Shown here: positions 1-27,608 of the stretch, one piece after another
Layout of the letters: each line of letters begins with the position of its first letter
Position numbering within the stretch: position 1 is the first letter of the stretch
Virus record (IMG/VR): IMGVR_UViG_2711768038_000004
DNA from: a virus
Lineage: Duplodnaviria > Heunggongvirae > Uroviricota > Caudoviricetes
Reading direction: 5' to 3' (one strand)
DNA length: 27,608 nucleotides
Made by a program: the position numbers and the translations under genes
The notes under the pieces: model-generated
What the model was told of the DNA's origin: nothing
Seen by the model: the letters and a program-made list of their open reading frames with translations, nothing else
Databases searched by the model: none

Positions 1-1284
1 TTACAGACTTCTGGAAGGTTGCGCAGCTCTTACAACACGCGGTTGATCTTCCGCAGCGTCTTCCAGCGCACTTAAATCACGGTCTTTCACCTCTGGCATT
101 TTCAGCGCAGAGATTAAACCAATCACTGAATATGCCATGATCATAATGGCGATCGGATACCAGGATTCCGTCATGGTGCAGAAAATACCCGCCAGGATAG
201 GACCAAAACCGGAAGCGATAAGACCACCAATTTCTTTAGAAATAGCCATCCGGGTAAAGCGGTTTTTACAGCCGAACATTTCTGCCATGGTAATGTTTTC
301 CAGAGCAAATAATCCCAGCACCGCACAGTTATGAATCACAATCAGTGCAACCATAATGGTGCTCGGGGCATAGCTTTTATCTACAATGATAGAAAGCATT
401 GGCCATGCCAGCACAATCGCGGAGGTATTCATAATAATATACGGGATCCGGCGACCAATTTTATCGGATAACCAACCAAGGAACGGAATGGTCATAAAGC
501 CGAGAATCGAACTGATCATCAATGCATCTGTTGGAATTGCTTTGTTAAACAATAACGTCTGCACTAAATAGCCTGCAAGGAAAGTCTGAATTAACCCGGA
601 GTTACCCGCCTGACCAAAACGCAGCCCTGTTGCCAGCCAGAAGGATTTGCTCTGGAACATGCTACCAGCAGGTGCAGGTTTTGCTGTCGGTTGGTTACTG
701 TCGTTAACCTTCTCAAAGACCGGGCTTTCTTTCAGATTCATACGCAACCAGATAGCAAAGACCATCACGACAACGCTCGCCAGGAACGGTATACGCCATC
801 CCCACGCCAGCAGTTCCTCTTTACTGAGAATGAAGAACATAAAGGCCCAGATTGCCGTTGCGCTCAAGGTTCCGCAGTTAGTTCCCATAGCCACAAATGA
901 GGAGATAATTCCGCGCTTACCTTTTGGCGCATATTCCGCCAGCATCGTACCGGCACCGGAAATTTCCGCACCTGCACCCAACCCCTGAATAATACGCAAC
1001 GTCACCAGCAAGATGGGTGCAAAAACACCAATCTGTGCATAGGTCGGTAACACACCAATTAAGGTGGTACAGATCCCCATCATGGTGATGGTAATAAAGA
1101 GCACTTTTTTACGCCCTATTCTGTCGCCCATTTTGCCGAAAATAAATGCTCCGACAATACGCGCCACATAACCTGCACCGTAGGTTCCCATTGCCAGAAT
1201 TAACGCCATTGCCGTTGATGATTCAGGAAAAAATATTTCATGAAACACTAACGCTGCGCCGAGCGAATATAACTGGAAATCCAT
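1..1284 (-). CDS. ydfJ: MFS (MHS-type) transporter YdfJ, N-terminally truncated relative to family members; the prophage junction lies just upstream of its start
   Basis: 427-aa ORF with multiple TM segments and MFS motifs (GxxxDRxGRKK, PESxxRG-like). It begins at the conserved 'DF..Y..AALVF' block that normally sits about 40 residues into MHS transporters. Confidence 0.8.
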   Translation of the reverse strand: MDFQLYSLGAALVFHEIFFPESSTAMALILAMGTYGAGYVARIVGAFIFGKMGDRIGRKKVLFITITMMGICTTLIGVLPTYAQIGVFAPILLVTLRIIQGLGAGAEISGAGTMLAEYAPKGKRGIISSFVAMGTNCGTLSATAIWAFMFFILSKEELLAWGWRIPFLASVVVMVFAIWLRMNLKESPVFEKVNDSNQPTAKPAPAGSMFQSKSFWLATGLRFGQAGNSGLIQTFLAGYLVQTLLFNKAIPTDALMISSILGFMTIPFLGWLSDKIGRRIPYIIMNTSAIVLAWPMLSIIVDKSYAPSTIMVALIVIHNCAVLGLFALENITMAEMFGCKNRFTRMAISKEIGGLIASGFGPILAGIFCTMTESWYPIAIMIMAYSVIGLISALKMPEVKDRDLSALEDAAEDQPRVVRAAQPSRSL

Positions 1285-1886
1285 AATTCACAGGTGTTTT
1301 TTCCCATCCTGTGGTTTCCTTGGCGTTTTCTAGGTTTTTTCAGATAGTTGCATTTTTTTAAAAGCATCCTAAGTTCGATCTCAGTGTCTATCTGGGGCCT
1401 ATTTCTGTCCCATATATGCCCCAAAAAACTCCCCAACAGATAAGTAGTTTTTTCATGGATTTACGCGTAAAATCAATAACGGCTGGAAATCATTCAATAC
1501 TCGCACTATCGAAAAATTTACCAGCCAACCGCAGCACGTTCTTGCATAAGGCGTGTCTGCGGTTTTTCAACTATTCAGATACATCACTCCCATCACATTC
1601 ATTCCTCCGCATCAAAGGCATATAGGCTATATCACCTTGATATTTTTCTTCTTCAGATAAAAATTGTTATCTATGTATACTTTTAAACCCAATCCGTGTA
1701 GAGTCTCTGCATAAGATAGTTTGCAGTTGCCACTTCAGATTGCGCCATAAACCGCCTGATTTTTGCCGCCACCTGTTAGCATTCCTGTATACCTGAAACG
1801 ACAATGTTTATCTACGAACTTTAAGAACACCCAAGATAAAAATTGTCAACTATATCATATATAACACATTACTAATTCGAGGCTAT

Positions 1887-2000
1887 ATGAACAGCATACT
1901 GATAATCACTTCTCTCCTTATCATATTCAGCATTTTTAGTCATGCCCTAATAAAATTAGGGATTGGCATATCCAATAACCCAGACAAAACCGATGTATAA
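1887..2000 (+). CDS. Hypothetical 37-aa hydrophobic peptide ([37 protein letters not shown])
   Basis: ATG at 1887 preceded by GAGG (1879-1882); single predicted TM helix; stop at 1998-2000. Below the ORF-track size cutoff. Confidence 0.25.
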
Positions 2001-2068
2001 GTCAACATATCCTGAATCAGACATACAATATCGCAATGAAAATCAATAATATTTTAAGGAATATCTTC

Positions 2069-2302
2069 ATGAAATCAAAAGACACCCTAAAGTGGTTCCC
2101 TGCGCAGCTTCCTGAAGTAAGAATTATCCTAGGGGATGCTGTAGTGGAAGTAGCAAAACAGGGAAGACCTATCAATACCAGAACATTGCTTGATTACATT
2201 GAAGGAAACATAAAGAAAAAATCATGGCTGGATAACAAAGAATTATTACAAACAGCGATATCAGTTCTTAAAGACAACCAAAATTTAAATGGTAAAATGT
2301 AA
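2069..2302 (+). CDS. ydfK: Qin prophage protein YdfK (YnaE paralogue), 77 aa
   Basis: ORF 2036-2302; internal start MKSKDTLKWF at 2069 with AAGGAA 8 nt upstream; sequence recognised as YdfK/YnaE. Confidence 0.75.
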   Translation: MKSKDTLKWFPAQLPEVRIILGDAVVEVAKQGRPINTRTLLDYIEGNIKKKSWLDNKELLQTAISVLKDNQNLNGKM

Positions 2303-2618
2303 TATAACAAACTTACTTTTTTATCATTTTTCCACTTTAACAACATTTTGCTCCACTTTTCCACGACCAAACAAATTGAAATCTGGTTAAAATAACACGC
2401 AACACTATTCTTCTTCCTTGAGTCTGCCCGGAACTCGAAAAACAAACCGAGTTAAAGCCATTTTTCACAAAATCGATTTTGGGTCTCACCAAAATTACGG
2501 GGTTGCATACGCATTCGTTTATTTTCGAACGTGTACATACAAATATGCACAAAAATAATCAAAATTATTTTCTGAGATGCATTATGATATGAACACCAAT
2601 TTCGTATAGAGTCTCACT

Positions 2619-3209
2619 ATGTCTCGAATTTTTGCTTACTGTCGGATATCAACGCTGGATCAGACCACCGAAAATCAACGCCGGGAAATCGAAAGTGCAG
2701 GTTTTAAAATCAAACCTCAGAAAATAATCGAAGAACACATTAGCGGCTCAGCAGCAACCAGTGAGCGTCCTGGTTTTAACCGGTTGCTTGCTCGCCTGAA
2801 ATGTGGTGATCAATTGATTGTGACAAAACTGGATCGCCTTGGTTGTAATGCAATGGATATCAGGAAAACAGTGGAACAACTGACCGAAACAGGTATCAGA
2901 GTGCATTGCTTAGCATTGGGGGGCATTGACCTGACCAGTCCAACAGGAAAAATGATGATGCACGTAATTTCAGCAGTCGCTGAATTTGAACGAGACCTTT
3001 TACTTGAACGCACTCATTCCGGGATAGTAAGAGCCCGCGGCGCAGGGAAACGTTTTGGTCGACCACCTGTGTTAAATGAAGAACAGAAACAGGTGGTATT
3101 CGAACGAATTAAGTCAGGTGTAAGTATAAGTGCCATTGCCCGGGAATTCAAAACCTCGCGGCAAACCATTTTAAGAGCCAAAGCAAAACTTCAGACACCT
3201 GACATATAA
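2619..3209 (+). CDS. pinQ: Serine recombinase (resolvase/invertase family) PinQ, 196 aa
   Basis: N-terminal catalytic motif [15 protein letters not shown], resolvase core, C-terminal HTH; recognised as PinQ/PinR. Confidence 0.85.
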
Positions 3210-3306: not shown

Positions 3307-3882
3307 CTACGGCAGTGCTGGCCATTCAATATCCTGTGCAGTTGATGTATCAACACGGTTCAGCAACACCCGATACTTTTTCCAGGCTTCCAGCAATGAG
3401 GTTTCTTCCTCCGTTGCGATTTCCAGATCTACAGCATCCTGAAGTGGCGCTATATGCTCACTGGCTACCTGCATCAGGCTGTTTTTTGTTTCTTCCGCCT
3501 CCCGGATCCGGAACAGTTTTTCTGCTTCCGTATCCTTCACCCAGACTGTACCGTTCCACTTCTGAAACTCCCCTTCCGGCGATAACCAGGTAACATTTTC
3601 CGGTAACGGACCGAGTTCAGAAATAAATAACGCGTCGCCGGAAGCCACGTCATAAACCATTTTACCCCGATGATCTTCAACGAGATGCCACGATGACTCA
3701 TCACTGTTGAAAACAGCCACGAAGCCAGCCGGAATATCTGGCGGTGCAATATCGGTACTGTTTGCTGGCAGACCTGTATGAGGCGGAATATATGCATCAC
3801 CTTCACCAATAAATTCATTAGTTCCGGCCAGCAGATTATAAATTTTTATGGTCCGTGGTTGTTCACTCATTCTGAATGCCAT
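3307..3882 (-). CDS. tfaQ: Tail fibre assembly protein TfaQ, 191 aa
   Basis: Recognised Tfa-family sequence; start overlaps the stop of the upstream tail-fibre ORF (3882). Confidence 0.8.
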
Positions 3883-4985: not shown

Positions 4986-5200
4986 TGCTCATTCCACGGA
5001 CAAAAACAGAGAAAGGAAACGACAGAGGCCAAAAAGCTCGCTTTCAGCACCTGTCGTTTCCTTTCTTTTCAGGGGGTATTTTAAATAAAAACATTAAGTT
5101 ACGACGAAGAAGAACGGAAACACCTTAAACCGGAAAATTTTCATAAATAGCGAAAACCCGCGAGGTCGCCGCCCCGTAACCTGTCGGATCACCGGAAAGG
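4986..5200. promoter_or_regulatory. Lambda-like cos site (cosB with R sites next to Nu1, cosN about 5163-5174, cosQ-like sequence beyond)
   Basis: The reverse complement of 4986-5200 reads like the lambda left end joined to the lambda right end (GGGCGGCGACCTCGCGGGTTTTCGCTATTTATGAAAATTTTCCGG..., preceded by ...CGGTGATCCGACAGGTTACG). Confidence 0.7.
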
Positions 5201-5373
5201 ACCCGTAAAGTGATAATGATTATCATCTACATATCACAACGTGCGTGGAGGCCATCAAACCACGTCAAATAATCAATTATGACGCAGGTATCGTATTAAT
5301 TGATCTGCATCAACTTAACGTAAAAACAACTTCAGACAATACAAATCAGCGACACTGAATACGGGGCAACCTC

Positions 5374-5607
5374 ATGTCAACGAAGAACAGAACCCGCAGA
5401 ACAACAACCCGCAACATCCGCTTTCCTAACCAAATGATTGAACAAATTAACATCGCTCTTGAGCAAAAAGGGTCCGGGAATTTCTCAGCCTGGGTCATTG
5501 AAGCCTGCCGCCGGAGACTGTGCTCAGAAAAAAGAGTTTCTTCTGAAGCAAACAAAGAAAAGAGTGACATTACTGAATTGCTCAGAAAACAGGTCAGACC
5601 AGATTGA
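5374..5607 (+). CDS. ynfO: Qin prophage protein YnfO, 77 aa
   Basis: ORF with start MSTKNRTRR; recognised sequence. Confidence 0.7.
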   Translation: MSTKNRTRRTTTRNIRFPNQMIEQINIALEQKGSGNFSAWVIEACRRRLCSEKRVSSEANKEKSDITELLRKQVRPD

Positions 5608-5649
5608 AGCAATTTAGATAATCGTGCAGACTACGCCCCCTCATATCAC

Positions 5650-6075
5650 ATGGAAGGTTTATCTATGGATCAGGTAGTCATTTTTAAACAAATATTTGAT
5701 AAAGTTCGAAACGATTTAAACTATCAATGGTTTTATTCTGAGCTAAAACGTCACAATGTCTCACATTACATTTACTATTTAGCCACAGAGAATGTTCATA
5801 TTGTATTAAAAAATGATAATACAGTGTTATTAAAGGGCCTAAAAAACATTGTGTCTGTCAAATTTTCAAAGGATAGGCATCTTATAGAAACGACCTCTAA
5901 TAAGCTGAAATCCAGAGAGATCACATTTCAGGAATACAGAAGAAACCTTGCTAAAGCAGGAGTTTTTCGGTGGGTTACAAATATCCACGAACAAAAAAGA
6001 TATTACTATACCTTTGATAATTCATTACTATTTACTGAAAGCATCCAGAAAACTACACAGATCTTACCACGCTAA
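5650..6075 (+). CDS. ydfO: Qin prophage protein YdfO (DUF1398-like); start may be the internal Met at 5665
   Basis: 141-aa ORF; recognised YdfO-like sequence. Confidence 0.7.
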
Positions 6076-6226
6076 ACCATAACGTCCGGCTTCTCTCACT
6101 CCTGAGCCGGACTGCATTGGTTTAATAAAAACCATCAACAATTGTGATTTAGATATTCGGAACCATTCAAATATAACAAAACCCCGTAAAAACGAGGTTT
6201 ATGGATAAATTTTATTATTGAATACA

Positions 6227-6875: not shown

Positions 6876-7073
6876 CACTTTTTTAAATCCAACGACAGAC
6901 GGCTGGCATTTAAGTATTGTGAAATATTATCAAATGTAATCATCATTGATTTACAAAAGATACATTTTGCCCCGAAAGGATTCATGTCAGAAACATCAAA
7001 AGATGATGTTCTATACTGGGAACCATGACAACACGGGCATCTAAAGTGAATATGGTTTGTAATATTGTCTACC

Positions 7074-7286
7074 TCAAAGCGCCACTACATGAACAGCGGC
7101 AGGACCTTTAGGTCCGTTCTCAATACCAAATTCAACTTCCTGATTCTCAGTTAATGTTTTGAAATCGTTGCTCTGAATTGCTGAGAAATGGACAAACACA
7201 TCTTTGCTGCCATCTTTCGGCGTGATGAAACCAAAACCTTTTTCAGGGTTAAACCATTTCACTAAACCAGTCATTTTGTTAGACAT
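7074..7286 (-). CDS. cspI: Cold shock protein CspI, 70 aa
   Basis: [23 protein letters not shown]... RNP1/RNP2 motifs of the CspA family. Confidence 0.9.
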
Positions 7287-7648
7287 AATTATTACCTTTT
7301 GAAGAAATTAGCCCTTGGGCAGAATGGTCCGAAAAAAAATATCAGAGAGAAAAACCAACAAGGAAATCTCAAGAGGTACAAATAATAAAATTATAACAAT
7401 GACTGCTTCAGATAAATTTGTAACAAACCAGAACACCATTAACGCATGATTAACCACCCATAGCAAGGATTACTTTTGTAAAGAAAAACACAGCAATGAA
7501 AGAATAGCTTTATTTATTAATAAAACGTGTCATTCTGATTAAGACCTTTTATCTTACCCTTAAGATTTCAGGAATTTTGGCTCATGGAAGAGTCCTTTTT
7601 ATTTAAATTTTACATTCCGCGATGTAAATGTTCCGATTTAATATTACC

Positions 7649-9674: not shown

Positions 9675-9957
9675 TTGAGATTGTGGTGCTTTTTGTGGGA
9701 GTCATCCACTTACGCACTTTGTTTTGCCATGCCAGCAGTTAGCTTCTGCTGTAAAACTATTCATGCAGCAAACCTGCACTTCACCACAATGGTTAGCATA
9801 CTTTTCCTGATTAAGATTTTGCCAAATATGCTAGCCATTGTTTCATGTATTGGACCTCCTTACTTTTTATTAAAGAGATCCAATATTCACTACTCTGTCC
9901 GTATCTCTACTCAGGCATCAGCCTTCTTCGTTATCGTATACAGACGAGCGATGAATT

Positions 9958-10173
9958 TTAATCAGTAATGATGACATTTGCTGCTGCAGGACCTTTAGCA
10001 CCACTCTCTATAGAGAAGGTAACCTTTTGACCTTCAAATAAGGTTCGATAATTATCATTCTGAATCGCAGAAAAATGCACAAACACATCTTTACTACCAT
10101 CAACAGGAGAAATAAAGCCGAAACCTTTATCAGCGTTAAACCATTTTACTAAACCAGTCATTTTATTTGACAT
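9958..10173 (-). CDS. cspB: Cold shock protein CspB, 71 aa
   Basis: [23 protein letters not shown]... Confidence 0.9.
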
Positions 10174-10473
10174 TCTACATTCCTTAACTTGAGCCTTTCG
10201 GCATAAATGGTTTGCATAACAGAAACGACTTCGTACTTAATTGGAGAGACTCAAAGAAGGAATAAGTGAATAACACCTGAAATGAGAACTGCTTTAGTAA
10301 ACTACTTCGTATATCGTCTGTTCTTCAAACCGACGCAATCATTAACGCATAGTTGAACATATGAAGCAATGTTTATTTTAGACATCCAGCCATCTTCAAC
10401 CCCATCAAAAAACTATAGCTTTCTTCAGGAACGTGTGTATAGTGCGCCAAGTTATCAGTATTAAGGAATTTTT

Positions 10474-17106: not shown

Positions 17107-17440
17107 GAAAAATCCCCCAGAGAATTGTCTGGGGACATTTTAGAATGGTTCAAAGGGGACATTACAGCTTGGTGTTAACAATAGCCTGCTTCTCCGTGCC
17201 TTTCGGCACGTAAGAGGCTAACCTACATGTGTCTAGCATGAAATTGGCCTCAGATTAATGTTAAGCGTCTTGCAGGACGCGTAATGTTAACTGGGGCTTT
17301 TCTCTATCTGCCGTTGGTGTCCATGCCCGAGGCAGATAGCCTCAAGCACCCGCAGTCATTCTACTTAACTAAGATTTCCCCGCAAACCGTTTTTGTCCAG
17401 CACAGTAAATATCCAACTAAACCAATGGAGTTCGCTGTAT

Positions 17441-21353: not shown

Positions 21354-21761
21354 ATGGAAACAAAAAATTTAACTATCGGCGAACGCATCAGGTATCGTCG
21401 GAAAAACCTCAAACACACCCAAAGGTCTCTTGCTAAAGCCCTGAAAATCTCCCATGTGTCTGTATCACAATGGGAACGGGGTGATAGTGAACCTACAGGG
21501 AAGAACCTTTTTGCCCTCAGCAAAGTATTGCAATGCTCACCAACATGGATTCTATTTGGCGATGAAGACAAGCAACCAACACCACCTGTTGAGAAGCCAG
21601 TTGCCTTATCCCCCAAAGAACTAGAGCTCCTTGAGCTGTTTAATGCACTGCCAGAATCAGAACAGGATACCCAGCTCGCCGAAATGCGAGCTCGAGTAAA
21701 AAACTTCAATAAACTCTTTGAAGAATTACTAAAAGCCCGTCAGCGGACAAATAAAAGATAA
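21354..21761 (+). CDS. dicA: DicA, CI-like HTH-XRE repressor, 135 aa
   Basis: METKNLTIGERIRYRRKNLKHTQRSLAKALKISHVSVSQWERGD... Confidence 0.9.
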   Translation: METKNLTIGERIRYRRKNLKHTQRSLAKALKISHVSVSQWERGDSEPTGKNLFALSKVLQCSPTWILFGDEDKQPTPPVEKPVALSPKELELLELFNALPESEQDTQLAEMRARVKNFNKLFEELLKARQRTNKR

Positions 21762-22801: not shown

Positions 22802-22854
22802 TTTCTGGTGACGTTTGGCGGTATCAGTTTTACTCCGTGACTGCTCTGCCGCCC
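22802..22854 (+). ncRNA. dicF: DicF small RNA (53 nt; antisense inhibitor of ftsZ and other targets), processed from the operon transcript
   Basis: Matches my recollection of DicF (UUUCUGGUGACGUUUGGCGGUAUCAGUUUUACUCCGUGACUGCUCUGCCGCCC) followed by a U-run. Confidence 0.8.
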
Positions 22855-23028: not shown

Positions 23029-23217
23029 ATGAAAACGTTATTACCAAACGTTAATACGTCTGAAGGTTGTTTTGAAATTGGTGTCACTATCAGTAACCCA
23101 GTATTTACTGAAGATGCCATTAACAAGAGAAAACAAGAACGGGAGCTATTAAATAAAATATGCATTGTTTCAATGCTGGCTCGTTTACGTCTGATGCCAA
23201 AAGGATGTGCACAATGA
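23029..23217 (+). CDS. dicB: DicB cell-division inhibitor, 62 aa
   Basis: MKTLLPNVNTSEGCFEIGVTISNPVFTEDAINKRKQERELLNKICIVSMLARLRLMPKGCAQ. Confidence 0.85.
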   Translation: MKTLLPNVNTSEGCFEIGVTISNPVFTEDAINKRKQERELLNKICIVSMLARLRLMPKGCAQ

Positions 23218-23405
23218 ATTCAGCATTTGTGCTTGTTCTGACAGTTTTTCTTGTTTCCGGAGAGCCAGTTGATATTGCAGTCAGTGTTCACAGGACAATG
23301 CAGGAGTGTATGACTGCAGCAACCGAACAGAAAATTCCCGGTAACTGTTACCCGGTCGATAAAGTTATTCACCAGGATAATATCGAAATCCCGGCAGGTC
23401 TTTAA
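23214..23405 (+). CDS. ydfD: YdfD, 63 aa, small membrane/lysis protein; start overlaps the dicB stop (ATGA)
   Basis: MNSAFVLVLTVFLVSGEPVDIAVSVHR... Confidence 0.8.
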   Translation: MNSAFVLVLTVFLVSGEPVDIAVSVHRTMQECMTAATEQKIPGNCYPVDKVIHQDNIEIPAGL

Positions 23406-23497
23406 AACAGTTCCGTAATAAATATCCGGTTTCATTCTTATATGCCAGCAATGGCAGGGATTTGTTCATCCTTAAATCTGTCATGAGGTTAAAACAA

Positions 23498-25969
23498 ATG
23501 AGTAAAGTCTTTATTTGCGCCGCTATTCCTGACGAACTGGCAACAAGGGAAGAAGGCGCTGTGGCTGTAGCCACAGCCATTGAAGCTGGCGACGAACGCC
23601 GTGCTCGAGCAAAATTTCACTGGCAATTCCTGGAACATTATCCGGCTGCTCAGGACTGCGCTTATAAATTTATTGTCTGCGAGGATAAACCTGGCATACC
23701 CCGCCCTGCCCTCGATTCATGGGATGCTGAATATATGCAGGAAAACCGCTGGGATGAGGAGTCTGCTTCTTTTGTCCCGGTTGAGACTGAATCCGATCCG
23801 ATGAACGTCACTTTTGACAAGCTGGCCCCTGAAGTACAGAACGCTGTCATGGTTAAGTTCGACACATGTGAAAACATCACCGTTGATATGGTTATTAGCG
23901 CACAGGAATTGTTGCAGGAAGACATGGCAACATTCGACGGACATATCGTTGAAGCGTTGATGAAAATGCCAGAAGTTAACGCCATGTATCCGGAGCTTAA
24001 GTTGCACGCCATTGGGTGGGTTAAGCATAAATGTATTCCTGGTGCTAAATGGCCCGAAATTCAGGCAGAGATGCGCATCTGGAAAAAACGTCGCGAAGGT
24101 GAACGCAAGGAAACCGGAAAATACACGTCTGTTGTTGATCTCGCCCGCGCCAGAGCCAATCAACAGTACACTGAAAATTCAACAGGAAAAATCAGCCCGG
24201 TCATTGCTGCCATTCATCGCGAATACAAGCAGACATGGAAAACACTGGATGACGAACTGGCCTACGCTCTCTGGCCTAGTGATGTGGATGCCGGAAACAT
24301 TGACGGCAGCATCCATCGCTGGGCAAAAAAAGAAGTTATCGACAACGACCGCGAAGACTGGAAGCGTATCTCGGCATCAATGCGCAAACAGCCTGATGCC
24401 CTTCGCTACGACCGCCAAACTATTTTTGGCCTTGTCCGTGAGCGTCCGATCGACATTCACAAAGATCCCGTAGCACTGAACAAATATATCTGCGAATACC
24501 TGACGACAAAGGGCGTGTTTGAGAATGAAGAAACAGACCTGGGCACTGTTGATGTTCTCCAGTCATCAGAAACACAAACTGATGCAGTGGAAACTGAGGT
24601 ATCTGATATCCCAAAAAATGAAACCGCGCCGGAAGCTGAACCATCTGTAGAGCGTGAGGGGCCGTTCTATTTCCTCTTCGCAGATAAGGACGGAGAAAAA
24701 TACGGTCGCGCAAACAAACTCTCTGGTCTGGATAAGGCACTGGCTGCTGGCGCCACTGAAATCACAAAAGAAGAATATTTTGCCCGAAAAAATGGCACAT
24801 ACACGGGCTTACCGCAAAATGTAGATACCGCTGAAGATTCAGAACAACCAGAGCCGATAAAAGTTACCGCTGACGAAGTAAACAAAATTATGCAGGCAGC
24901 CAATATCAGCCAGCCTGACGCCGATAAGTTGCTTGCTGCATCACGTGGTGAATTTGTTGAAGGGATTAGTGACCCGAATGATCCGAAATGGGTTAAGGGG
25001 CTCCAGACCCGCGATTCTGTGAACCAGAACCAGCATGAATCGGAACGGAACTACCAAAAAGCGGAACAAAACAGTCCAAATGCGTTACAAAACGAGCCAG
25101 AAACGAAACAGCCTGAACCAGTAGCGCAACAGGAAGTGGAAAAAGTCTGCACCGCCTGCGGTCAGACCGGCGGCGGCAACTGCCCTGATTGTGGCGCGGT
25201 GATGGGCGACGCAACATACCAAGAAACATTCGATGAAGAGTATCAGGTTGAAGTTCAGGAAGATGATCCGGAGGAAATGGAAGGCGCTGAACATCCACAC
25301 AAGGAGAACACTGGCGGCAATCAGCATCACAATAGCGATAATGAAACTGGCGAGACGGCAGATCACCCAATTAAGGTGAACGGTCATCACGAAATCACAT
25401 CCACCAGCAGGACGTGTGACCATCTAATGATCGACCTTGAAACCATGGGAAAAAATCCTGATGCCCCGATCATCTCAATAGGTGCAATATTTTTCGATCC
25501 GCAAACCGGAGATATGGGACCGGAATTTAGTAAGACTATCGATCTGGAAACTGCTGGCGGAGTCATTGATCGGGACACCATTAAATGGTGGCTTAAGCAA
25601 TCACGCGAAGCGCAATCTGCCATTATGACCGATGAAATCCCGTTAGATGATGCACTGTTACAATTGCGAGAATTTATCGACGAAAACTCCGGTGAATTTT
25701 TTGTTCAGGTTTGGGGAAATGGAGCCAACTTCGACAACACGATTTTGCGCCGTTCATACGAACGGCAGGGGATCCCCTGCCCGTGGCGTTACTACAACGA
25801 TCGCGATGTACGCACAATCGTTGAGCTGGGGAAAGCCATAGACTTCGATGCCAGAACGGCTATTCCATTCGAAGGTGAGCGCCATAATGCACTTGATGAC
25901 GCCCGTTACCAGGCAAAATACGTTTCAGTTATCTGGCAAAAACTGATCCCGAGTCAGGCTGATTCTTAA
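23498..25969 (+). CDS. ydfE: YdfE-like large early-left-operon protein (823 aa), intact, with C-terminal DEDDh 3'-5' exonuclease domain and an internal Cys4 zinc ribbon
   Basis: Start MSKVFICAAIPDE with GAGG RBS (ORF track begins at 23462). Motifs DLETMG, GNGANFDNT, HNALDDARY; CTACGQTGGGNCPDCG. Confidence 0.75.
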   Translation: MSKVFICAAIPDELATREEGAVAVATAIEAGDERRARAKFHWQFLEHYPAAQDCAYKFIVCEDKPGIPRPALDSWDAEYMQENRWDEESASFVPVETESDPMNVTFDKLAPEVQNAVMVKFDTCENITVDMVISAQELLQEDMATFDGHIVEALMKMPEVNAMYPELKLHAIGWVKHKCIPGAKWPEIQAEMRIWKKRREGERKETGKYTSVVDLARARANQQYTENSTGKISPVIAAIHREYKQTWKTLDDELAYALWPSDVDAGNIDGSIHRWAKKEVIDNDREDWKRISASMRKQPDALRYDRQTIFGLVRERPIDIHKDPVALNKYICEYLTTKGVFENEETDLGTVDVLQSSETQTDAVETEVSDIPKNETAPEAEPSVEREGPFYFLFADKDGEKYGRANKLSGLDKALAAGATEITKEEYFARKNGTYTGLPQNVDTAEDSEQPEPIKVTADEVNKIMQAANISQPDADKLLAASRGEFVEGISDPNDPKWVKGLQTRDSVNQNQHESERNYQKAEQNSPNALQNEPETKQPEPVAQQEVEKVCTACGQTGGGNCPDCGAVMGDATYQETFDEEYQVEVQEDDPEEMEGAEHPHKENTGGNQHHNSDNETGETADHPIKVNGHHEITSTSRTCDHLMIDLETMGKNPDAPIISIGAIFFDPQTGDMGPEFSKTIDLETAGGVIDRDTIKWWLKQSREAQSAIMTDEIPLDDALLQLREFIDENSGEFFVQVWGNGANFDNTILRRSYERQGIPCPWRYYNDRDVRTIVELGKAIDFDARTAIPFEGERHNALDDARYQAKYVSVIWQKLIPSQADS

Positions 25970-26041: not shown

Positions 26042-26293
26042 ATGAGCGAAGTAATCATGATTGTCTCTCCCGGCAAATGGGTATCCGAAGAGCAGTTAAT
26101 TGCGCTGAAAGGAATAAAAAAAGGTACGTTAAAAAAGGCCCGGGAAAAATCGTTTATGGAAGGAAGGGAATATAAGCATGTCGCTCATGACGGTATGCCA
26201 TGGGATAACAGTCCATGCTTTTACAACCTGGAAGAAATTGATCGCTGGATTGAGCGCCAGGCATCAGCGAGACCAAGACGTCATCTTACTTGA
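26042..26293 (+). CDS. Excisionase-like protein (Xis), 83 aa or shorter
   Basis: Small basic protein immediately upstream of int; architecture inference. Confidence 0.55.
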   Translation: MSEVIMIVSPGKWVSEEQLIALKGIKKGTLKKAREKSFMEGREYKHVAHDGMPWDNSPCFYNLEEIDRWIERQASARPRRHLT

Positions 26294-26312: not shown

Positions 26313-27608
26313 ATGAGAGAAGTTGAAATGAAATATCCGACAGGCGTGGAAAACCATGGAGGGAAATTACGTATCTGGTTTGTTTATAAAGACGTAAGAG
26401 TCAGGGAAAATCTGGGGGTTCCTGACACAGCAAAAAACAGGCGCGTTGCAGGTGAACTACGCTCCTCTGTTTGTTACGCAATAAAAACTGGTGTTTTCGA
26501 CTATGCAAAACAGTTTCCCTCCTCACGCAATCTGGAAAAATTTGGTGAGGCCCGACAAGATTTAACCATAAAAGAACTGGCTGAAAAATTTCTGGCACTG
26601 AAAGAAACTGAAGTCGCCAAAACATCACTCAACACATACCGTGCCGTCATCAAAAATATCCTGAGCATAATCGGTGAAAAAAATCTTGCCTCATCGATTA
26701 ATAAAGAAAAATTACTGGAGGTTCGTAAAGAGTTACTGACTGGATACCAGATCCCCAAAAGTAACTATATTGTTACACAACCAGGGAGATCGGCTGTAAC
26801 TGTAAATAATTACATGACAAATCTTAACGCCGTGTTCCAGTTTGGTGTTGATAACGGTTACCTGGCAGATAATCCGTTTAAGGGGATCTCGCCATTAAAG
26901 GAATCAAGAACCATTCCGGATCCTCTTTCGCGGGAAGAATTTATCCGTCTTATCGATGCGTGCAGAAATCAGCAAGCAAAAAATTTATGGTGTGTTTCTG
27001 TTTATACTGGAGTTCGCCCTGGTGAGCTGTGTGCACTTGGATGGGAGGACATAGATCTGAAAAATGGAACAATGATGATCAGGAGAAATTTAGCAAAAGA
27101 CCGTTTCACGGTACCAAAAACACAGGCGGGAACCAATCGGGTCATTCATCTTATTAAGCCAGCAATCGACGCTCTCCGGAGTCAGATGACATTAACGAGA
27201 CTGAGCAAAGAGCATATCATTGATGTTCACCTCAGAGAGTATGGCAGAACAGAAAAACAAAAATGCACCTTTGTTTTTCAACCTGAAGTGTCAGCGAGAG
27301 TAAAAAATTATGGTGACCATTTTACCGTTGACTCAATAAGGCAGATGTGGGACGCAGCGATAAAACGTGCCGGACTCCGCCATCGAAAATCATATCAGTC
27401 GAGACATACTTATGCCTGCTGGTCGCTGACAGCTGGTGCTAACCCGGCATTTATAGCAAACCAGATGGGCCATGCAGATGCGCAAATGGTATTTCAGGTA
27501 TACGGAAAATGGATGTCTGAAAACAATAATGCACAGGTAGCTTTGTTAAATACACAGTTAAGCGAGTTTGCCCCAACCATGCCCCATAACGAAGCAATGA
27601 AAAATTAA
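26313..27608 (+). CDS. intQ: Tyrosine integrase (IntR/IntQ-type with N-terminal arm-binding domain), intact; stop is the last codon of the window
   Basis: N-terminal PTGVE..G.LRIWF motif; C-terminal catalytic residues (R..., HTYACW, VYGKW Tyr). Confidence 0.85.
   Translation: MREVEMKYPTGVENHGGKLRIWFVYKDVRVRENLGVPDTAKNRRVAGELRSSVCYAIKTGVFDYAKQFPSSRNLEKFGEARQDLTIKELAEKFLALKETEVAKTSLNTYRAVIKNILSIIGEKNLASSINKEKLLEVRKELLTGYQIPKSNYIVTQPGRSAVTVNNYMTNLNAVFQFGVDNGYLADNPFKGISPLKESRTIPDPLSREEFIRLIDACRNQQAKNLWCVSVYTGVRPGELCALGWEDIDLKNGTMMIRRNLAKDRFTVPKTQAGTNRVIHLIKPAIDALRSQMTLTRLSKEHIIDVHLREYGRTEKQKCTFVFQPEVSARVKNYGDHFTVDSIRQMWDAAIKRAGLRHRKSYQSRHTYACWSLTAGANPAFIANQMGHADAQMVFQVYGKWMSENNNAQVALLNTQLSEFAPTMPHNEAMKN

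Follow-up and report, generated by a model that had tools for sequence, protein, structure and literature searches.

What does a lambdoid prophage carry at the end of its early-left operon, in the position that is occupied in the Rac prophage by recE and recT, when the neighbouring DNA encodes neither RecT nor the RecE nuclease? The question is raised by a ydfE-type gene in the IMG/VR virus record IMGVR_UViG_2711768038_000004, a stretch of 27,608 nucleotides (nt) that is referred to below, in its entirety, as the window. Judged from its sequence, the gene is the intact form of ydfE, a gene of the Escherichia coli prophage Qin. Its product is a RecE-family scaffold on which the PD-(D/E)XK 5'-3' nuclease has been replaced, together with recT, by a DexA-type 3'-5' nuclease. 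The initial annotation of the window had already placed the gene in the slot of phage recombination genes, and the slot is indeed the operon end preceding xis-int, where Rac has recE-recT.

The gene and its translation start are located as follows.

23498..25969, + strand: full-length ydfE-type coding sequence, 823 amino acids and a stop codon
23485..23488, + strand: Shine-Dalgarno sequence GAGG, 9 nt 5' of the ATG, read from the sequence

The open reading frame is uninterrupted and has a good ribosome-binding site, in agreement with the initial annotation, which had called the gene intact. An alternative TTG start at position 23462 would give a protein of 835 amino acids and lacks a comparable ribosome-binding site. 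The gene is 100% identical to that of phage PhiR42_1, and the 823-residue protein matches PHROG 2082 from end to end. An open reading frame of 823 codons with domain matches such as those described here is far beyond what chance can account for.

The nuclease occupies the C-terminal part of the protein and carries all the motifs of its class.

25418..25966, + strand: DEDDh 3'-5' exonuclease domain, residues 641-823, identified by Pfam, PDB sequence match, AlphaFold2 (AF2) and Foldseek
25433-25450, + strand: DLETMG, residues 646-651, the Exo I D-x-E motif D646-L-E648
25730-25741, + strand: FDNT, residues 745-748, with the Exo II aspartate D746, in NGANFDNT
25883-25909, + strand: HNALDDARY, residues 796-804, the Exo III H-x4-D motif H796-NALD-D801 of the 'h' subtype

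These three motifs had been read near the C-terminus as DnaQ-like in the initial annotation, and both the domain search and the structure prediction bear this out. Residues 642-813 match the Pfam family PF16473 (Rv2179c-like 3'-5' exoribonuclease domain) with an E-value of 2.4e-67 and a score of 226.5 bits against a cut-off of 27, covering profile positions 2-177 of 177. The catalytic pentad D646, E648, D746, H796 and D801 is the same in YdfE and in all 14 homologues (58-87% identity) aligned with it. When the PDB was searched with the sequence of the protein and matches up to an E-value of 1 were considered, bacteriophage T4 DexA (8KEL/8KEN) was the only relative found (E = 1.5e-6). The AF2 model built from a 67-sequence alignment has predicted local distance difference test (pLDDT) values of about 81-96 per 10-residue block over residues 641-820, mostly at or above 90; all values given here are from this model, the single-sequence model of the full protein having a mean pLDDT of 34 and being unusable. 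An RNase H-like alpha/beta fold of the DnaQ type is thus predicted for the C-terminal domain. The best Foldseek match of the modelled domain is again DexA (8KEL, E = 3e-9, TM-score normalised to the target 0.65-0.72), followed by RNase T, oligoribonuclease and REXO2. Rv2179c, after which the Pfam family is named, is absent from the PDB sequence matches and from the 50 Foldseek PDB matches listed. Sequence and model together identify the domain as a DEDDh exonuclease of the PF16473/DexA family, with a predicted metal-dependent 3'-5' activity.

The part of the protein that precedes the nuclease is composed of several segments, which differ in predicted order and in the ratio of nonsynonymous to synonymous substitution rates (dN/dS).

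23498..23797, + strand: N-terminal segment of the YdfE_N type, residues 1-100, pLDDT below 50, dN/dS 0.08, the most constrained part of the protein
23798..24217, + strand: helical region of the YdfE_N module, residues 101-240, dN/dS 0.25
24218..24517, + strand: conserved helical core domain, residues 241-340, pLDDT 89-98, dN/dS 0.12
24518..24877, + strand: variable acidic linker, residues 341-460, rich in aspartate and glutamate, low pLDDT, dN/dS 0.33
24917..25364, + strand: block shared at the DNA level with Rac recE, residues 474-622, comprising the DADKLLAASRGEF helix, the zinc ribbon and an acidic tail
25148..25192, + strand: Cys4 zinc ribbon CTACGQTGGGNCPDC, followed by GAVMGDATY, with the spacing C551-x2-C554-x7-C562-x2-C565

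In BLASTP, residues 262-627 align with residues 278-592 of Rac RecE (E = 3e-62); in both proteins the nuclease domain begins shortly after the aligned region. This homology to the non-catalytic part of RecE, which the initial annotation had missed, extends the resemblance of the two loci beyond a shared map position and points to a swap of catalytic domains on one scaffold. The identity rises to about 80% over residues 462-627, a stretch that takes in the DADKLLAASRGEF helix, the ribbon and the acidic tail. The DNA of the shared block, 24917-25364, is 78% identical over 448 nt to positions 5001-5406 of locus L003 in blastn and 85.7% identical in megablast, with about 80% protein identity. The NCBIfam RecE equivalog NF007259 matches residues 246-623 with its profile positions 271-600 of 877; the score of 281.6 bits lies far below the cut-off of 1269, which a full-length RecE is required to exceed. 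The Pfam scan of YdfE gives no match to PF12684, the PD-(D/E)XK domain that is recognized in Rac RecE with an E-value of 4e-28, and no N-terminal PF06630 (Exonuc_VIII) in the window allele. Rac RecE is composed of PF06630 and PF12684, and the sister protein of phage vB_EcoS-640R1 of PF06630 and PF16473. GenBank phage records PV340562, OV696610, ON470612 and others name the gene 'exodeoxyribonuclease VIII'; this is a mis-annotation, because the protein has no RecE nuclease domain and falls far short of the RecE equivalog cut-off. In RefSeq the gene is variously called 'exonuclease', '3'-5' exonuclease' or '3'-5' exoribonuclease domain-containing protein'.

The helical core aligns to RecE residues 278-340, is present in 51 representative sequences, and is common to relatives with RecE-type, DEDDh and Rad52-like heads. 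A search of the PDB with a profile of the core returned nothing credible, the best match being a designed TIM barrel (E = 0.016). In the preceding helical region the pLDDT is 85-91 over residues 101-140 and 43-69 over residues 141-240. All four cysteines of the ribbon, which the initial annotation had placed at 25150-25200, are kept in each variant string among the fetched homologues. The long acidic linker that it had noted ahead of the nuclease is also present, and a strongly acidic stretch is found after the ribbon, where residues 561-600 include 14 aspartates and glutamates and no lysine or arginine. The small zinc proteins YdaE of Rac and YnfU of Qin were considered as relatives of the ribbon and bear no resemblance to it. 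Separately, residues 238-278 of YdfE (window 24209-24331), at the start of the helical domain, have a weak similarity to the C-terminal tail of Rac RecE, residues 827-862 (E = 0.12; EY..L.TL.D.L....WP......S..RWAK), which may be due to chance.

The modular nature of the protein is evident from its relatives. Residues 1-640 were used for a HMMER search of 1.84 billion representative proteins, and the 247 relatives obtained were dissected with domain-specific phmmer queries. All four combinations of N-terminus and nuclease were found among them. The YdfE_N segment is joined to the DEDDh domain in the window gene and to the RecE nuclease in P0252, P0318 and P0345; the RecE N-terminus is joined to the RecE nuclease in Rac RecE and to the DEDDh domain in P0249, the N-terminus of which is nearly identical to that of Rac RecE. 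In the sister alleles the RecE PF06630 N-terminus takes the place of the YdfE_N segment. The DNA of vB_EcoS-640R1 is 93% identical to the window up to the start codon, unrelated over the first ~1.36 kb of the gene, and then 97% identical to a point past the stop codon, which amounts to a clean swap of an N-terminal cassette. The matches listed in a homologue search with residues 1-460 were 81-100% identical, and the named ones were all from E. coli or E. albertii.

A further group of relatives, 680-790 residues in length, combines YdfE_N and the helical scaffold with a conserved C-terminus of about 270 residues instead of a nuclease (P0250, P0255, P0256, P0275, P0289, P0308, P0310, P0315, P0330, P0350, P0382 and P0388 in alignment A4). 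This C-terminus contains the motifs GTSINxEYMxMRATExFGPxGxGW and KKSLTDAxKKALSxLGFSADV, and PHROGs 2489 and 7838 label such proteins 'exonuclease'. Sub-threshold matches to Rad52_Rad22 (PF04098) were obtained for 8 of the 12 members. The hhalign comparison with human RAD52 gave a weak, collinear match of 116 columns (E = 0.017, probability 2.7%) that takes in the KKSLTDAxKKALSxLGF helix; a profile of these C-termini had no match in the PDB. The similarity is no more than suggestive of a Rad52-like annealase. If it holds, the scaffold would carry annealases as well as nucleases.

The ribbon is found on yet another enzyme. A D12-class Dam methyltransferase (PF02086, E = 7e-53), encoded at positions 5187-6167 (- strand) of IMG/VR locus L117 and also in L112 and L114, ends at its C-terminus in a zinc ribbon of the YdfE/RecE type. 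The ribbon thus looks like a portable module that is used on different phage DNA enzymes. The methyltransferase gene lies about 230 nt 3' of a stand-alone, EcD-like DEDDh gene, with a 75-residue open reading frame between them.

The surroundings of ydfE in the window are those of the K-12-type Qin locus, and the gene order is dicA-ydfABC-DicF-dicB-ydfD-ydfE-xis-int.

21354..21761, + strand: dicA, the operon repressor, collinear with the annotated K-12-type locus
22803..22854, + strand: DicF small RNA, Rfam RF00039, 76.7 bits
23029..23217, + strand: dicB, collinear with the K-12-type annotation
23214..23405, + strand: ydfD, lysis protein gene directly upstream of ydfE, collinear with the K-12-type annotation
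26042..26293, + strand: excisionase gene, directly downstream of ydfE
26313..27608, + strand: integrase gene, reaching the end of the window

From this order we infer that ydfE is the last gene of the DicA-repressed early-left operon (dicBF, the pL equivalent). The + strand from dicA to ydfE has no match to a sigma-70-like promoter. A weak terminator-like hairpin with a 5-bp stem and a T-poor tail is located at 23443-23456 (+ strand), within the 92 nt that separate ydfD from ydfE. Elsewhere in the window, Rfam identifies IS009 at 3341-3539, leaders of the cspA thermoregulator type at 7047-7432 and 9942-10334, and the sok antitoxin RNA at 17180-17351, all on the - strand; this set fits a Qin-like element (cspB, cspI and hokD region).

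No annealase accompanies the nuclease. There is no recT in the window, and the RecE nuclease domain has no tblastn match there. Neither RecT nor a RecE nuclease is encoded within about 7 kb in any of 80 related prophage loci, and annotation together with Pfam scans of the unassigned early open reading frames gave no recognizable annealase in the complete phage HannyBb. The initial annotation had considered 3'-5' polarity to be the wrong chemistry for recombination. That judgement was itself inferential, and in principle 3'-5' resection may also expose complementary strands.

In the K-12-type Qin locus, represented by strain LTE950, the order rem-hokD-relEB-...-dicC-dicA-ydfA-ydfB-ydfC-dicB-ydfD is followed by an annotated 'exonuclease' pseudogene that corresponds to nt 1-767 of the window gene with 100% identity; the upstream order is identical in the window. 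The end of the pseudogene adjoins fragments of an IS2 transposase and of an integrase, beside rspB. The K-12 copy had been described in the initial annotation as a truncated pseudogene, and the truncation point can now be placed after nt 767, at about residue 255, inside the helical core. At the same chromosomal site strain EC581 has an intact 823-residue exonuclease (WP_000048342.1), an excisionase, an integrase and rspB, and the window is collinear with both loci at an offset of 17497. The EC581 locus represents the ancestral arrangement. Another copy, 100% identical to the window gene, is split in two by an IS3-family element in E. coli VG888-46E9 (NZ_CP128581.1, 2325570-2329354), an event independent of the IS2 truncation in K-12.

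The gene is widespread and mostly intact. Of 5426 complete E. coli genomes, 4800 give a megablast match to it and 3537 contain at least 80% of its length. Phages PhiR42_1, HannyBb, Tritos and mEp460, whose genomes are complete, carry it as well. The 80 related loci are IMG/VR prophage loci with a DEDDh domain 98-100% identical to that of the window and are not a sample of its diversity. An intact open reading frame of 811-852 residues is present in 71 of them, 58 of the YdfE_N type and 13 of the RecE_N type, and the gene is truncated or cut in the remaining 9. DicB and YdfD are encoded upstream in most of the loci, and an excisionase and integrase like those of the window follow in 36. For 47 unique alleles of 823 codons the overall dN/dS is 0.27; this value and those of the separate parts were obtained from non-independent pairs, with recombination ignored. 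By part, the DEDDh domain (0.13) is constrained about as the N-terminal segment and the helical core are, and the ratio is 0.33-0.38 for the linker and the ribbon module (residues 461-640). The gene is under purifying selection.

Shortened and divided forms also occur. In P0042 (214 residues, 19 contigs), P0058 (261 residues), P0073 and P0075, an in-frame junction links residues 1-62 or 1-133 of YdfE to a point midway through the DEDDh domain. The Exo I motif is missing from these proteins, which look like recurrent internal deletions. In locus L090 (E. coli JZOP01000123, positions 737-3127), three genes of 456, 157 and 183 codons are annotated 3' of dicB and ydfD in place of a single one for scaffold and nuclease, and the ribbon is on the 157-residue piece. 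The copy has either suffered a frameshift or is split by nature. Some of the E. coli DEDDh proteins regarded as 'stand-alone' may therefore be fragments.

We lean towards the view that YdfE is a modular early protein of lambdoid phages in which a RecE-family scaffold carries a DEDDh head for annealase-independent trimming of DNA 3' ends. The scaffold consists of the N-terminal module, the helical domain of about 100 residues, the disordered acidic linkers and the Cys4 ribbon, and the head is a predicted Mg2+-dependent 3'-to-5' exonuclease of the DexA/Rv2179c family. As the product of the last gene of a DicA-repressed operon, YdfE would be made on induction and during lytic growth, and not in the quiescent lysogen. 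During lytic growth the head would then trim DNA 3' ends without an annealase, the scaffold directing it to whatever the N-terminal region of RecE recognizes. DNA is considered a likelier substrate than RNA because the nearest characterized relatives, DexA and EcD, are DNases (PMC12153337), because the head is exchangeable with a double-stranded DNA exonuclease, and because the ribbon is also present on a Dam methyltransferase. An extended version of the proposal has, in our estimate, a small chance of being right. In it, the scaffold serves recombination in general as a hub and brings exchangeable heads (5'-3' PD-(D/E)XK, 3'-5' DEDDh and Rad52-like) to one shared DNA intermediate or host partner, and the DEDDh version resects 3'-5' in a single polypeptide. 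If true, this would provide annealase-independent single-strand annealing or end repair via 5' tails, and a one-protein phage recombination/repair system distinct from all Exo/annealase pairs.

Several points weigh against 3'-end trimming of DNA by a RecE-like protein. We know of no established role in lambdoid recombination for a 3'-5' nuclease without an annealase. PF16473 takes its name from the RNase Rv2179c, and after DexA the closest folds are those of RNase T and oligoribonuclease. Operon membership and expression limited to induction are deduced from the K-12 literature and the missing promoter match, and a weak hairpin is present between ydfD and ydfE. The N-terminal domain of RecE is described as having an unknown function, and full-length RecE as improving linear-linear recombination, in a 2023 review (PMC11611040); for this reason, to say that YdfE targets DNA as RecE does explains little. 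Literature searches on ydfE, dicBF and ydfD gave no functional statement about ydfE, in keeping with the initial annotation, which had called the protein poorly characterized.

One alternative is offered by a 2025 paper in which the structure of T4 DexA was solved (PMC12153337). There the E. coli DexA homologue EcD degraded T4 DNA, not unmodified DNA, and protected against T4, a system termed 'HREX'. In EcD the equivalent of DexA D90 is lost and replaced by Ala78, which is said to prevent both the formation of tetramers and activity on unmodified DNA, and the DexA tryptophan W152 is proposed to stack on 5-hydroxymethylcytosine (5hmC) (PMC12153337). Prophages are never mentioned in the paper. 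EcD-type genes recovered in IMG/VR with its primers encode 189 residues, start with MIDTET... and have alanine at position 78, and their 3' end agrees with the reverse primer save for one base. YdfE might accordingly be a defence nuclease of this kind, which degrades incoming 5hmC-modified T-even DNA from its 3' ends and protects the lysogen: the C-terminal domain is 39% identical to EcD over 183 residues (E = 2e-38), purifying selection maintains the gene in most E. coli genomes, and the WP_0000483xx accessions among the 'bacterial DexA homologues' of Table S3 of PMC12153337, which numerically adjoin the 823-residue WP_000048342, may be YdfE alleles. Both hallmarks of EcD are absent from YdfE, however, as far as alignment can tell: D718 is kept where EcD has the modification-only Ala78, and Tyr767 (in WRYYNDRD) stands in place of the 5hmC-stacking tryptophan of DexA (KFWNQRD) and EcD (CYWNER). 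Moreover, a DicA-repressed early-left operon next to xis-int is not a position for lysogenic conversion, PADLOC gave a weak generic DEDDh match and no other defence-system model, and on the same kind of scaffold the RecE nuclease can take the place of the domain. We consider the defence role unlikely.

The same RNase-like features that weaken the DNA-trimming proposal would favour an exoribonuclease, which trims or degrades the 3' ends of phage or host transcripts, processes DicF, or takes part in retroregulation of the int/xis mRNA. To the name of the Pfam family and the resemblance to RNase T, Orn and REXO2 may be added the location of ydfE between the DicF small RNA and xis-int. Nevertheless, DexA, the one solved relative in sequence and the closest match in fold, is a DNase, the homologue EcD acts on DNA, and the scaffold and ribbon are otherwise found on DNA enzymes, namely the RecE nuclease, the probable Rad52-like domain and the Dam methyltransferase, which makes an RNA substrate very unlikely. 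Host takeover or counter-defence, in which YdfE degrades host DNA for nucleotides or destroys the single-stranded DNA or oligonucleotide products of defence systems, is a distinctly unlikely role. A nucleotide-scavenging role is documented for DexA (PMC12153337). The early position of ydfE in the lytic operon and the stand-alone copies in the same slot of other enterobacterial prophages would fit such a role, which leaves the RecE scaffold under the domain unexplained. Breakdown of the host chromosome is not known for temperate lambdoid phages. Finally, the IS2-cut K-12 copy, the IS3-split copy of VG888-46E9 and the 9 truncated or cut loci might suggest a functionless remnant of a decaying prophage. 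That is hardly credible, being contradicted by the selection data, with a dN/dS of 0.08-0.13 in the folded or constrained domains, and by the large majority of intact loci and the presence of the gene in complete phage genomes.

About two thirds of complete E. coli genomes contain the gene over at least 80% of its length, and K-12, the strain of most E. coli genetics, has only a stump. The enzyme is of a known kind, a phage DEDDh exonuclease of the DexA family; we found no description of a RecE scaffold with a swapped head and a lost recT. The N-terminal two thirds of RecE have long been a blank, and a scaffold that carries a nuclease of opposite polarity, and probably an annealase too, gives a comparative handle on what it recognizes. 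A widespread mis-annotation as 'exodeoxyribonuclease VIII' is corrected. This phage protein of an early operon, and not constitutive defence genes, is likely to account for most of the 'DexA homologues' of E. coli, which sets the EcD/HREX idea in context.

Among known systems, Rac RecE (exodeoxyribonuclease VIII) is the closest in architecture. It is similar in size (866 residues, against 823 for YdfE), has the helical core and a CxxC...CxxC-GxxxGDATY ribbon upstream of the nuclease, and is encoded in the slot that closes the early-left operon ahead of xis-int. Its head is a PD-(D/E)XK domain (PF12684) of 5'-3' polarity, whereas that of YdfE is a DEDDh domain of predicted 3'-5' polarity, and recE is followed by recT, whereas ydfE is not. 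The N-terminal 260 residues of the window allele differ from those of Rac RecE, which the sister alleles share. T4 DexA, a phage 3'-5' exodeoxyribonuclease, has the DEDDh catalytic residues in common with YdfE and is its best match in both sequence and fold. DexA is, however, a stand-alone protein of 227 residues from a lytic phage, with extra loops and about 21-23% identity to the YdfE domain in the Foldseek structural alignment, whereas the YdfE domain is the C-terminal quarter of a protein from temperate phages. Rv2179c of Mycobacterium tuberculosis, in the same Pfam family, is described as an exoribonuclease. Stand-alone DEDDh genes of 180-190 codons in Salmonella, Klebsiella and Citrobacter prophages encode proteins 57-77% identical to the C-terminal domain of YdfE; they have no scaffold and, in Salmonella prophages, are found directly 5' of xis-int, the slot that ydfE occupies in the window. 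EcD, which belongs to the same Pfam family and like YdfE is carried by enterobacterial mobile elements, is a stand-alone protein encoded beside the ribbon-bearing Dam methyltransferase, whereas YdfE is encoded in the dicBF operon.

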